A stretch of DNA of 64,000 nucleotides from Polaromonas sp. GTDB lineage: Bacteria; Pseudomonadota; Gammaproteobacteria; Burkholderiales; Burkholderiaceae_C. Numbering within the stretch: position 1 is the first letter of the stretch; each line of letters begins with the position of its first letter. Below, in pieces: positions 22,279 to 50,424 of the stretch. The translations under genes were made by a program, and so were the position numbers. A model generated the notes under the pieces. The model searched no databases. It was not told the origin of the DNA and saw only the letters and a program-made list of their open reading frames with translations. The stretch spans positions 21,304 to 85,303 of the forward strand of contig JBKCGU010000042.1 of NCBI GenBank assembly GCA_046303055.1. The letters run 5' to 3'.

Positions 22279-24369
22279 GTGACTGACGACCTCTTCAGCA
22301 GCGGGCCCGCAGGGCCGCTTGCCCATGCCGCTGAACGCATGGCGGAACTTCACAAGCAACTGCATGCACACGCCCACCGCTACTATGTGCTCGACGAGCC
22401 ATCGATTCCCGATGCCGAATACGACCGACAGTTCAACGAACTGCAAGCGCTCGAAGCGCAGTACCCAGAATTACTGACACCCGATTCGCCGACCCAGCGG
22501 GTTGGCGGCAAGGCACTTGACCAGTTTGCCAGCGTGCGCCACAACGTGCCTATGTTGAGCATTCGCACAGAAACTGATACCGAGGCAACTGGCGCGCAAA
22601 ACTTTGACACCCGCGTTCGCAAAGAACTGGGGCTGACCGATGCTGACCCACCCGTCGACTACGTCGCCGAACTGAAGTTTGATGGTCTTGCGATGAGTCT
22701 GCGCTACGAGGGCGGCGTGCTGGTGCAGGCTGCCACGCGCGGCGATGGTGAGTCCGGCGAAGATGTCACGCAGAACATCCGAACGATCAAACAGATTCCC
22801 CTGCGGCTGCCCGAGGATGCACCTGCGGTGCTGGAAGTGCGTGGCGAGGTGTACATGCGCCGCGATGATTTTGAAGCGCTCAACGAGCGCCAGCGCGCCA
22901 GAATTGCCCAGGGCATGAAAGGCGAAAAAACCTTTGTCAACCCGCGCAATGCTGCAGCCGGTGCTGTGCGCCAGCTCGACCCGGCGATTGCGGCGCAGCG
23001 CCCCTTGAGCTTTTTTGCCTACGGCCTGGGTGACATCACCGCTGCAGATGCGGGCGGCCCCGCCTTTGAAACCCATTTTGAGCTGCTGCAAGCCTTGAAA
23101 AATTGGGGTTTTCCAGTTGCAGACCAAACAAAGCTTGCACAAGCCGCTCCTGAATTAATAGCGTATCACCAGCTGATGGGGAAAACTCGGGACAGTCTGC
23201 CTTTTGACATTGACGGCGTGGTTTACAAAGTCAACAGCCTGGCGCTGCAAAAGCAACTGGGTTTTGTGACCCGCGAGCCACGCTGGGCGGTGGCGCACAA
23301 GTACCCGGCCCAAGAGCAACTGACCACTGTCCTCAGCATTGATGTGCAGGTGGGCCGCACTGGCAAACTCACGCCGGTAGCCAAGCTCGCCCCGGTGTTT
23401 GTGGGCGGCGTGACCGTGACCAACGCCACGCTGCACAACGAAGACGAAGCCCGCCGCAAGGACGTGCGGGTAGGTGACACGGTTGTGGTGCGGCGGGCGG
23501 GCGACGTGATACCTGAAGTCGTCAGCGTGCTGCCGGACAAGCGTGTGCCTGGCGCAGACATCTTTACCATGCCGCGTATTTGCCCGGTGTGCGGCTCCAG
23601 CGCCGTGCGTGAAGAAGGCGAGGCTGATTACCGCTGCACGGGCGGCCTGTTTTGTGCTGCGCAGCGCAAGGAAGCCATCCTGCACTTCGCGCATCGCCGC
23701 GCTGTCGAAGTTGACGGCCTGGGCGACAAGCTGGTCGAGCAACTGGTCGATGCGAACATCATTCGTACTCTGCCTGACTTGTACAAACTGGGTCTGACAG
23801 CCTTGGCCAACCTGGACCGCATGGCCGACAAATCAGCCATGAACTTGCTGGACGCGCTTGAAAAATCCAAGCAAACCACGCTGCCGCGCTTTGTTTTTGG
23901 CCTGGGTATTCGCCATGTGGGCGAGGCCACAGCCAAAGCGCTGGCCAGGCACTTCGGCAAGCTCGATGCGATCATGGACGCGACCGAAGCGCAATTGGTC
24001 GGCGTCAGCGACGTTGGCCCCATCGTCGCCAAAAGTCTGCGCACTTTTTTCGACCAAGCGCATAACCGCGAAATAGTCGAGCAACTGCGGGCTTGCGGCG
24101 TGACATGGGAAGAAGGGGCCCCTGCGGCCGTCGTACCCAAACCCCTGCTTGGCAAAACTTTCGTCATCACCGGCACACTGCCCACCCTCAGCCGCGACCA
24201 GGCCAAAGACATGCTCGAAGCAGCGGGTGCAAAAGTTGCTGGCAGTGTGAGCAAGAAAACCGATTATTTGCTGGCTGGAGCTGACGCAGGCAGCAAGCTG
24301 GACAAGGCTGGGGAGCTTGGCGTCGCAGTGATTGATGAGGTGGTTTTATTGGATATGCTCAAGCCATGA
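22279..24369 (+). CDS. ligA: NAD-dependent DNA ligase
   Basis: ELKFDG adenylation motif, [22 protein letters not shown], Zn finger, BRCT domain. Confidence 0.98.
23109..23162 (+). repeat. 54-bp element (family A) inside ligA
   Basis: ttttccagttgcagaccaaacaaagcttgcacaagccgctcctgaattaatagc; 35/54 ungapped identity (hand count) to the intergenic copy at 33258. Confidence 0.6.
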
Positions 24370-24905
24370 CCATCCACACCATCCTGAAAATGGGCGACCC
24401 ACGACTGTTGCGCGTTGCCCAACCCGTCATGCAATTGGACACCGACGAGCTGCATCTGCTCATCAGCGACATGTTTGAGACCATGCGCTCGGTCAACGGC
24501 GCCGGGCTGGCCGCCCCGCAGATTGGGATTGATCTGCAACTCGTGATTTTTGGCACGGATGCGCCGAACCCGCGCTATCCGGATGCGCCGCTGATACCGC
24601 GTACCGTGCTGCTCAACCCGGTGATCACGCCGCTTTCGTCAATCGAAGAAAACGGCTGGGAAGGCTGTTTGTCGGTGCCCGGCCTGCGCGGCGTGGTGCC
24701 GCGTTTTTCGCGAATCAGGTATACCGGGTTCGATCAATACGGCGATGCGATTGACCGCACGGTGGATGGCTTTCATGCGCGGGTGGTTCAGCATGAATGT
24801 GACCATCTGATTGGTAAGTTGTATCCGATGCGTATCCGCGACTTCACCCAGTTTGGGTTTACCGAAGTTATATTCCCGGGGCTTGACGCCAGCCAGGACG
24901 ATTGA
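24366..24905 (+). CDS. def: Peptide deformylase
   Basis: [22 protein letters not shown]. Confidence 0.97.
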
Positions 24906-24992
24906 ACCTAGAAAAAGCAGTTGGATGCGCCCGAGTGTTCATGCGGTCTGTGAGATGTTTACGAGCGGTCAACTGCTTTTTTTAGGTTTAAA

Positions 24993-48484: not shown

Positions 48485-48591
48485 GCTGGCACTGATGCAC
48501 CAGGATGACGACCCAGGGGGCGAGCCTGCAACCATCTTGCAGACCGACCCTTTTTAACTCCTGGCCTGACAACTTGGCTTGCGCTTGACCC

Positions 48592-50424
48592 ATGAACCTG
48601 CGATCAACCCTTGATTTTCTGCTGTACGACTGGCTGCAGGCCGAGTCTTTAAACCAGCGCGCACGTTTTTCTGACCACTCGCGGGAAACCTTTGATGCCG
48701 TTTTTGACACCTGCGAACGAATTGCGCGTGAAAAATACGCACCGTTCAACCGCCTGGTAGACACCCAGGAGCCGCACTTTGACGGGGAAAAAGTCATCTT
48801 GCCGCAGGCCACGCATGATGCGCAAAAGGCTTATGCCGAATCGGGCTTGCTCAGTGCCGCGCAAGACTACGATATGGGCGGCATGCAGCTGCCCTACACG
48901 GTGGAGGCGGCGGCCAATGCCTTTTTTGCAATGGCATCGGTCAGCATTGGCTCTGGCATGCTGACCACGGGCAATGCCAATTTGCTGATGGTGCACGGTA
49001 ACGAGTTGCAAAAAGAAGTCTTTGCCAAAAACGAATTTTCAGGACGCTTTTCAGGCACCATGTGTTTGAGCGAGCCGCAGGCGGGCTCGTCACTGAGCGA
49101 TGTCACCACGCGTGCTGTGCCAGATGGCGCTGACTTTGAGGCCGAGCCGCTGGGGGCGCGCTACCGCCTCAAGGGCAACAAGATGTGGATCTCGTCAGGC
49201 GAACACGAGTTGACCGACAACATCATTCATTTGGTGTTGGCCAAAATTCCTGGGCTTGACGGCAAATTGATTGCCGGCACGCGCGGCATTTCGCTGTTTA
49301 TCGTGCCCAAAAAACTGGTGAATACAAAAGGTGAGCTGACAGGCGTGCGCAACGACGTGGCCTTGGCGGGCCTGAATCACAAACTGGGCTGGCGCGGCAC
49401 CACCAACACGCTGCTGAATTTCGGCGAAGGCAAGTATCCGGTGGATGGCCAGGCGGGTGCTGTGGGTTATCTGGTCGGCAAGCCGCATGAGGGTTTGCGC
49501 TGCATGTTCCACATGATGAATGAAGCGCGCATTGGCGTGGGGATGGCGGCCACCATGCTGGGTATGGCGGGTTACCACGCCAGTCTTGATTACGCCAAGA
49601 ATCGCCCGCAGGGCAGGCCGATGGGGCCGAGCGGCAAAGATGCATCAGCGCCGCAAATCCGCATCATTGAACACGCTGACGTCAGGCGCATGCTGCTGGC
49701 GCAAAAGTCATATTGCGAAGGCGCTTTGGCGCTGGAGCTGTATTGCGCCCGGCTGGTCGATGAACAGCATACGGCTGAAGACCAGGCTGCTGACGACGCT
49801 CGAATGCTGCTGGAGGTGCTGACGCCGATTGCCAAAAGCTGGCCCAGTGAGTGGTGCCTGGAGGCCAACTCACTGGCGATTCAGGTGCACGGTGGTTACG
49901 GCTACACCCGCGACTTCCCCGTCGAGCAGTACTGGCGTGACAACCGGCTGAACATGATTCACGAAGGCACGCACGGTATTCAAGCCATGGACTTGCTCGG
50001 TCGCAAGGTGCTGATGGAAGGGGGCAGGGGGCTGGCGCTGCTGGCGGCGCGCATTGAGGCCACGATGGACAAAGCAGCCTCGTTTGCAGAACTCAAAATC
50101 CATGCCGACGCACTTGGCAAAGCCTGGCAAGCCGTGACCAGCGCCACCCAAGCGGCCTGGGCCACAGGCAATCCGCAAGACGCGCTGGCCAATGCCGTGC
50201 CCTACATGCAGGCCTTCGGCCACACCGTTCTGGGCTGGATCTGGCTGGATGTTGCCTGCGCATCGCTTGACCAATCTGCTACACATTCAATAGCTTCTCG
50301 TGCAGGAATTCAGGGCGCTTGCGCCTATTTTTACGCCTACGAGCTACCTAAGATAACAGCCTGGCTCGCGGTGGTTGAAAGCCGAAACCTGCTGTGTGCC
50401 AACTTGCCGGAGGAGGCGTTTTAA
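48592..50424 (+). CDS. Acyl-CoA dehydrogenase (long type)
   Basis: TMCLSEPQAGSSL, KMWISSGEH, QVHGGYGY, IHEGTHGIQ. Confidence 0.94.
   Translation: MNLRSTLDFLLYDWLQAESLNQRARFSDHSRETFDAVFDTCERIAREKYAPFNRLVDTQEPHFDGEKVILPQATHDAQKAYAESGLLSAAQDYDMGGMQLPYTVEAAANAFFAMASVSIGSGMLTTGNANLLMVHGNELQKEVFAKNEFSGRFSGTMCLSEPQAGSSLSDVTTRAVPDGADFEAEPLGARYRLKGNKMWISSGEHELTDNIIHLVLAKIPGLDGKLIAGTRGISLFIVPKKLVNTKGELTGVRNDVALAGLNHKLGWRGTTNTLLNFGEGKYPVDGQAGAVGYLVGKPHEGLRCMFHMMNEARIGVGMAATMLGMAGYHASLDYAKNRPQGRPMGPSGKDASAPQIRIIEHADVRRMLLAQKSYCEGALALELYCARLVDEQHTAEDQAADDARMLLEVLTPIAKSWPSEWCLEANSLAIQVHGGYGYTRDFPVEQYWRDNRLNMIHEGTHGIQAMDLLGRKVLMEGGRGLALLAARIEATMDKAASFAELKIHADALGKAWQAVTSATQAAWATGNPQDALANAVPYMQAFGHTVLGWIWLDVACASLDQSATHSIASRAGIQGACAYFYAYELPKITAWLAVVESRNLLCANLPEEAF
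50278..50331 (-). repeat. 54-bp element (family A) inside the acyl-CoA dehydrogenase C-terminus
   Basis: gctacacattcaatagcttctcgtgcaggaattcagggcgcttgcgcctatttt = ATHSIASRAGIQGACAYF; both ends match intergenic copies. Confidence 0.6.

Follow-up and report, generated by a model that had tools for sequence, protein, structure and literature searches.

Among bacterial dispersed repeats, REP, RPE, MITE and BRE are regarded as insertions, whilst uptake sequences count as the sole case of a motif overlaid on codons. Here, I describe a dispersed, AT-rich repeat of about 52 nucleotides (nt) in freshwater Comamonadaceae, from a stretch of 64,000 nt of Polaromonas sp. DNA (assembly GCA_046303055.1, contig JBKCGU010000042.1, positions 21,304 to 85,303 of the forward strand; hereafter the window), where it lies both in spacers and inside genes. 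In two of these genes, ligA and mltG, it is established that the repeat has overwritten native codons and was not inserted. Long and diffuse as it is, the repeat behaves like the codon-overlaid kind of motif, occupying homologous native codons of essential genes and overriding their codon preference; such length-neutral placement inside essential genes is unusual for a bacterial repeat family.

Uptake sequences (USS/DUS) of the Pasteurellaceae and Neisseria (Findlay and Redfield 2009, PMC2817400) are genome-wide motifs that occur in both orientations and mostly within open reading frames (ORFs), where 65% of those of H. influenzae are reported, and they are superimposed on codons without a change in protein length. 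The 52-nt repeat is like them in each of these respects, the last one holding here for ligA, mltG and an acyl-CoA dehydrogenase (ACAD) gene. By analogy, it may also share with them a placement preferentially where the protein tolerates the motif, as the outcome of a DNA-level drive and not of protein function. USS and DUS have a near-invariant core of 9-12 nt, whereas the 52-nt repeat has a diffuse profile with few invariant bases and, unlike them, also goes with added length in places. Minus that defining invariant core, the uptake sequence may be regarded as its closest functional analogue.

Intragenic REP and Rickettsia palindromic elements (RPE; Di Nocera et al. 2013, PMC3733652, with references therein) are likewise short and dispersed, and lie in any frame within functional genes, often those of replication and repair; DNA ligase and DnaE are cited as their hosts, and the replication and repair genes that bear the 52-nt repeat here are ligA and dnaG. 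Their copies are said to be inserted in frame and to lengthen the protein, whereas five of the six coding copies tested here add 0-4 residues; the purL copy alone fits an RPE-type in-frame insertion, and those of ligA, mltG and the dehydrogenase do not. The imperfect palindrome or hairpin of REP/REPIN elements is not supported in the 52-nt repeat. Copies of BRE, the beta-proteobacterial repeat element (Hot et al. 2011, PMC3110155), are reported in Polaromonas and other Comamonadaceae, usually between genes and sometimes wholly inside coding sequences. With a length of about 90 bp, 69% GC and the core GCCCCCTCGGGGGGCAGCAAGC, they show no resemblance to the AT-rich 52-nt consensus when compared by eye, and the published BRE was rejected as the identity of the repeat because the sequences differ. 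The coding palindromes of Nematomorpha mitochondria (Mikhailov et al. 2019, PMC6649704) are a further case in which the same nucleotides bear a DNA-level repeat constraint and code for protein; they consist of long, perfect inverted repeats inside a single organelle gene, not of a multi-copy family dispersed across genes and spacers.

The repeat and its copies

The repeat was defined with the help of AT-rich islands and of repeated rounds of a nucleotide profile search. Its approximate family consensus is GCTATTAATTTAATAGCTGTTTGCGCATATTTGACATGGGCTAGAGCCC, and 20 intergenic copies yield the consensus GCTATTAATTTAATAGCTGTTTGCGCATATTTGACATGGGCTAGAGCCCTAT. The window, with a GC content of 57.8%, holds 12 copies, eight within ORFs and four between genes (scores are those of the matrix described below, unless stated otherwise):

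1924-1975, minus strand: dnaG copy, in gene 1347-3305 (-), sense; linker past the catalytic core, residues 444-461; 33.4 bits
8636-8687, minus strand: sense copy near the start of ORF 7596-8723 (-), at its 5' end; encodes ALFLGAACAANTWAKGP, residues 13-29; 34.7 bits
15927-15978, plus strand: intergenic copy flanked by the ACAD paralogue (14082-15914) and ORF 16016-16966; seed copy; 47.7 bits
23111-23162, minus strand: ligA copy, in gene 22279-24369 (+), antisense; LigA residues ~279-295; 29.4 bits
29625-29676, minus strand: purL copy, in gene 28669-32889 (+), antisense; hypervariable loop; 45.0 bits
33258-33309, plus strand: intergenic copy downstream of purL; 40.1 bits
36669-36720, minus strand: selO copy, in gene 36450-38027 (-), sense; 43.7 bits
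50278-50329, plus strand: ACAD copy, in gene 48592-50424 (+), sense; encodes ATHSIASRAGIQGACAY; 28.8 bits
52114-52165, minus strand: intergenic copy between ORF 51391-52062 and ORF 52218-53234; 43.8 bits
58783-58834, minus strand: ygfZ copy with a 1-nt deletion, in gene 58241-59239 (-), sense; holds an in-frame TGA; nhmmer score 23.1 bits
59658-59709, plus strand: mltG copy, in gene 59275-60282 (+), sense; encodes ALQKAELLAQDSIGLQPE; 36.2 bits
62449-62500, plus strand: intergenic copy directly after the stop of a pilZ-domain gene (62035-62445), upstream of ORF 62538-63335 (putatively tatD); 58.8 bits

The matrix is ungapped and was built from 20 intergenic copies, 16 of them from other genomes. 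Eleven copies of the window score between 28.8 and 58.8 bits, while the mean over all window positions is -58.5 (sd 13.7) and the best position outside the copies reaches about 5 bits, leaving a gap of about 24 bits up to the weakest copy. The ygfZ copy scores lower with this matrix because of its 1-nt deletion. Among 38 copies compared, only a CT and an AGC are invariant, the information being spread across about 50 nt; copies are 54-73% identical to the consensus, and the mean pairwise identity of the 12 copies of the window is 0.58. Copies begin with GCTAY (complement RTAGC) and have RTAGC or GGAGC at positions 13-17. The tetranucleotide GTAG, which tags one end of the RAYT-mobilised REP/REPIN elements, is found in some copies only, and no stem follows it.

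All three phases, as well as both orientations, are represented among the coding copies. This rules out a mobile peptide module, with its logic at the level of the protein. The element behaves like a signal at the DNA level that overlies coding sequence irrespective of frame and orientation. An orientation bias relative to transcription (nine copies sense, three antisense, counted by hand) is not significant. The first copies are about 7 kb apart, yet a Rayleigh scan over periods of 2.5-16 kb gave P = 0.25 against random placement, and regular spacing was dismissed. A hairpin in RNA or single-stranded DNA was rejected as well: RNAalifold found no consensus pairs in 38 copies, two hairpins proposed by hand were paired in 63% of cells vs 65% in shuffles with no covariation, and the whole window gave no Rfam match at the gathering score. 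Pairwise identities among the 12 copies are not overdispersed (spread P = 0.085, maximum P = 0.17), as a donor-recipient structure would have them, and the likeness of the selO and mltG copies (75%) is unexceptional given their shared profile.

The closest LigA relatives of the window come from Polaromonas and Rhodoferax assemblies, with up to 84% identity, and near-identical DNA is present in several freshwater and lake metagenomes. Loci from relatives are designated here by L-numbers. In L162, a family match (13721-13772) likewise lies just downstream of purL. The dnaG copy is outside the region that can be aligned to solved primases. Read by eye, ALFLGAACAANTWAKGP looks like part of a signal peptide, its hydrophobic core together with the cleavage region, ORF 7596-8723 encoding a putative exported protein.

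The in-frame TGA of ygfZ (58820-58822, minus strand) falls inside the repeat copy and is specific to this assembly. In contigs of four metagenome runs, position 58822 is a C and the codon reads GGA (Gly), which all relatives share; this base is also the better match to the consensus. Judging from these sequences, the TGA would be an assembly error or a strain-specific nonsense mutation.

Similarity beyond chance

A profile seeded with the four intergenic copies of the window only (the four-seed profile) retrieves every coding copy in an nhmmer search, with E-values against the window and 80 loci of 4e-5 for selO, 0.021 for ligA and 0.072 for ACAD. Were the resemblance due to chance, or forced by the amino-acid sequence together with local AT-richness, the coding copies would be unrelated to the intergenic repeat; the low scores of the two weakest matches to this profile (ligA, 15.4 bits; ACAD, 13.7 bits) speak for such an explanation, as does the fact that runs of AT-rich codons score higher against an AT-rich repeat. 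Yet when synonymous codons were shuffled within each gene, with protein sequence and codon usage fixed, only 0.16 coding matches of at least 12 bits were expected, vs 7 observed, and only 0.04 at 15 bits, vs 5 observed. None of 200 column-permuted profiles, in which local composition is kept, produced a coding match of at least 12 bits. The distance of about 24 bits that sets the weakest copy apart from the background maximum points the same way, and equivalent repeat sites were found again in independent genomes. Chance resemblance is effectively refuted and may be considered very improbable. The segments of ligA, selO and the dehydrogenase are true members of the 52-nt family, and so are those of mltG and ygfZ.

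Protein length at the coding copies

The effect on protein length was compared at six coding copies (ligA, selO, ACAD, mltG, ygfZ and purL). In LigA, the site aligns without gaps to the E. coli enzyme (2owo), 6 of 16 repeat-encoded residues being identical, and it is gap-free in 77 of 80 Burkholderiales orthologues, the other three being distant and having gaps of 2-3 residues. In MltG, no gaps were found at the site in 80 orthologues and in the PDB structure 8yq7, and 11 of 18 repeat-encoded residues match repeat-free orthologues (hand count on the alignment). In both proteins, the repeat-encoded residues are shown to be homologous to native residues of repeat-free orthologues, and this establishes for ligA and mltG that codons were overwritten and no insertion took place.

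For the dehydrogenase, selO and ygfZ, overwriting is the simplest reading. Orthologues of the dehydrogenase are not syntenic in the mltG loci and were collected separately; no indel is present at the copy in 120 homologues (86-100% identity), the difference is +3/-1 residues from a solved homologue, and the protein is one residue shorter than the repeat-free orthologue of L055 (site score -48 bits). Compared with solved SelO structures, SelO deviates by 1-2 residues, and it has four more residues than most of its close homologues (EANS, encoded by the 3'-terminal 12 nt of the copy). These close homologues hold the 5' 40 nt of the copy, including the unusual codons GCG CTA CAn TAT TCr GAG. The selO and mltG copies are 78% identical to each other over 51 nt and are read in one reading frame. 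YgfZ varies in length by ±3 residues among relatives and by ±1 relative to E. coli YgfZ.

An earlier note, made from the letters of this DNA alone, had singled out three peptides, all of which are present: in ligA at 23110-23166 (+), in selO at 36666-36719 (-), and ATHSIASRAGIQGACAYF of the dehydrogenase at 50278-50331 (+). The identities of the genes hold as well, namely NAD-dependent DNA ligase LigA, SelO/YdiU and a 610-residue acyl-CoA dehydrogenase. The note had further proposed that the repeat sits on native codons with no gain of about 18 residues, and orthologue alignments bear this out for all three genes: motif-free orthologues are not some 18 residues shorter at these sites, nor does the nucleotide similarity vanish once amino-acid constraint is taken into account, as the synonymous-codon shuffles indicate.

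Codon usage and conservation across relatives

The repeat copies employ rare codons ending in A or T. GC content at third codon positions (GC3) is 0.22 over the repeat codons of ligA, 0.24 over those of the dehydrogenase and 0.50 over those of selO, while the genes overall have 0.67-0.69 (ligA 0.67). In ORF 7596-8723, too, the repeat codons have a GC3 of 0.22-0.24 vs 0.67-0.69 gene-wide.

Copies are shared across genera. The ligA site scores 16-32 bits in L001, L006, L010, L011, L015 and L080, the median for 76 orthologues being -45.5, and the orthologous mltG sites range from -61 to +39 bits. Among relatives that were not selected by score, the site in the dehydrogenase gene reaches 27-38 bits in each of the four (L166-L169), the selO site is repeat-like in five of five, and the intergenic copy at 52114-52165 is kept in the same four loci L166-L169. 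Family copies are also seen about 350 nt downstream of mltG (~11270-11590) in L147, L153, L155, L156, L158, L144, L119 and L104, apparently within the next gene (tmk by position); the equivalent gene of the window is repeat-free.

The comparison of synonymous sites that the earlier note had suggested gave raised codon identity at the repeat sites of carriers, which in this case were chosen by site score, with the attendant bias: it is the highest of the gene in mltG and among the highest in ligA. When the window is compared with non-carriers, by contrast, codon identity at the ligA site is the second lowest in the gene. In unselected relatives the rise is smaller, 0.71 vs 0.56 in ACAD and 0.51 vs 0.41 in selO. 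Furthermore, per-position conservation of intergenic orthologues in unselected relatives tracks the information content of a family profile that was derived from different loci (rho 0.47, p 5e-4).

A repeat-like ligA site was seen only in loci with further family copies (4 of 6 vs 0 of 70, Fisher p = 1.2e-5). At mltG, the association between the state of the site and other family matches is not significant, because other subfamilies occur in non-carrier genomes. When the site is masked, a neighbour-joining tree of MltG, which covers one gene and has no support values, places the carriers in the clade of the window and in a second, distant clade. The lineage L091-L099 is nested among carriers on this tree and its mltG copy is gone; it is also without the ygfZ copy and the copy in the spacer behind the pilZ-domain gene, yet a long spacer is kept, and no family match was found in its 21-kb loci (contigs up to 3 Mb).

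The ligA copies of L015 and L006 have a different middle segment, GCGCTTGCTGGACAAGCG, which by eye is like that of another subfamily, and their LigA residues differ in step with it (PVS.LVQ vs PVA.QT).

How the repeat may be written

The explanation that I prefer, with a confidence a little better than even, is length-neutral overwriting of codons by a DNA-level motif, followed by family-wide maintenance. Repeat sequence would be laid over pre-existing codons and not added to genes, either as a short patch that is copied after anchoring on prior similarity (ectopic conversion or template switching) or through a run of substitutions drawn towards the motif. Selection at the protein level would then pass only those outcomes that preserve length and carry tolerable residues, and in tolerant places (the PurL loop and probably the intergenic spacer) the same family would arrive with extra length. 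Codon preference notwithstanding, the motif-defining positions would be maintained while the genome retains the family, and they appear to decay jointly once a lineage loses it. As to the writing step, I lean towards patch conversion. The writing mechanism, active maintenance and any function of the repeat are what I infer.

Several observations weigh against this explanation. The family goes with added length in PurL, where the loop of the window is 7-19 residues longer than in 15 of 16 recovered relatives, and 12 residues shorter than in the remaining one, L004; the purL copy is common to L001, L006 and L010, and L001 has a second one at 21031-21082. The same is probably true of the spacer behind the pilZ-domain gene, which measures 93-117 nt with a copy vs ~46-62 nt in many spacers without one (~100 vs ~58 nt). 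The alignment of this spacer is blurred by sequence turnover, with no exact insertion boundaries and, within that limit, no obvious target-site duplication, and L085 may be a deletion derivative. From these associations with length it follows that the family can also behave as an insertion. Besides, the repeat-encoded residues of SelO, ACAD and YgfZ show little identity to distant homologues, and in these three an old insertion followed by compensating loss is possible. No donor-recipient pair was found, the 12 copies of the window being old and star-like with no significant subfamily structure, so that a copied patch and gradual substitution are not statistically distinguishable; nor does any hairpin or covariation back a structural role. 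The codon-identity tests of mltG and ligA, as well as one set of intergenic conservation data, used carriers picked by site score and are biased accordingly. Finally, carrier genomes are lower in GC, and the matrix score drops as GC rises (rho -0.61). This confound accounts for part of the contrast between carriers and non-carriers, not for all of it, because low-GC loci without a copy exist.

The added length in PurL and in the spacer, the poor match of SelO, ACAD and YgfZ to distant homologues and the 12-nt indel inside the selO copy would also suit a mobile element of the REP/RPE/MITE kind that was inserted in frame, a similar length of adjacent native codons being deleted afterwards; intragenic REP/RPE insertions are documented, also in replication and repair genes (PMC3733652). 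Such an origin is hard to reconcile with the homology between repeat-encoded and native residues in LigA and MltG and with their gap-free alignments (77 of 80 and 80 of 80 orthologues, respectively). Moreover, all five coding sites in conserved regions differ by at most four residues, and a separate compensating deletion at each is unlikely. Insertion with compensating deletion has little probability: ligA and mltG refute it, and selO, ACAD and ygfZ are the only genes left to which it could apply. Among the mechanisms that the earlier note had listed, this one is thus excluded for ligA, and likewise for mltG, a gene that the note had not named; the other two, replacement or conversion on the one hand and selection for a site at the DNA level on the other, both stand.

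A selected site brings in a further candidate, in which a drive like that of uptake sequences, or selection for a protein-bound site, moves each copy towards an optimum motif by independent point substitutions, with no block being copied. It is a sub-case of overwriting and differs from the preferred explanation solely in the writing step. The copies do resemble independent draws from one profile, occupy both orientations and all frames, leave protein length unchanged in coding sequence and show position-specific conservation; 8 of 12 lie in ORFs, a share near the 65% given for the uptake sequences of H. influenzae (PMC2817400). The graded series of scores at the orthologous mltG and ligA sites, and the lineage without copies at three neighbouring sites, also fit such a drive. 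Yet an invariant core of 9-12 nt is missing, CT and AGC being all that is invariant in 38 copies, and the block-wise extra length in PurL, probably in a spacer too, is beyond what substitutions alone yield. By hand count, the ygfZ copy of L086 shows ~88% identity across 41 nt with an intergenic copy from another genome, also a long path to travel by single substitutions. A purely substitutional origin is the main rival, possible but doubtful. A copied patch, the writing step favoured above, would explain both the length-adding cases and the ygfZ copy of L086.

At its boldest, the overwriting reading leads to a proposal that I put forward only tentatively, as it is rather unlikely to hold: the repeat might be a previously undescribed genome-wide signal of about 50 bp in freshwater Comamonadaceae, read by cellular machinery (DNA uptake, chromosome organisation or repair) and actively written about every 5 kb irrespective of coding status. 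Length-neutral copy-over could proceed by annealing of repeat-derived single strands or by nuclease-triggered ectopic repair, so that hundreds of housekeeping proteins would carry stretches dictated by the signal, and the whole system would be lost as a unit in some lineages. If the situation of the window is general (8 of ~50 genes), a DNA-level signal would shape a considerable part of the proteins that abundant freshwater bacteria make. The family may be regarded as a tractable system for studying how such signals are written, by conversion or drive, and what reads them. Along a more practical line, repeat segments will mislead codon-based selection tests, recombination scans and the detection of horizontal transfer in these genomes.

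Other features of the window

Two pairs of paralogues, the 610-residue acyl-CoA dehydrogenases (14082-15914 and 48592-50424) and putative AMP-binding ligases (5151-6794 and 38041-39666), explain several long direct repeats of the window. The dehydrogenase paralogue at 14082-15914 has no repeat copy at the equivalent site.

A tandem direct repeat of 49 nt, 90% identical (45018-45066 and 45087-45135), is situated upstream of a gene at 45182-47281; in relatives, the syntenic homologues of this gene have domains of enoyl-CoA hydratase and 3-hydroxyacyl-CoA dehydrogenase. The core of the tandem repeat, AAGAACGGTCGTAC, is similar to a palindrome, AAAAAGAACGACCGTTCTTTTTT (12192-12217), upstream of ORF 12327-13076, and by their sequence the two sites look like candidate operators of a shared regulator.

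The window also holds, at loci separate from the 52-nt copies, an inverted repeat pair of 88 nt, 83% complementary, at 30583-30670 and 51492-51579, which is similar to the published BRE (core GCCCCCCCGGGGGGCAGCGAAC). The first copy is inside purL and is accompanied by about 29 extra residues; the second is in the 5' part of ORF 51391-52062, which encodes 223 residues here vs 147-156 in relatives.

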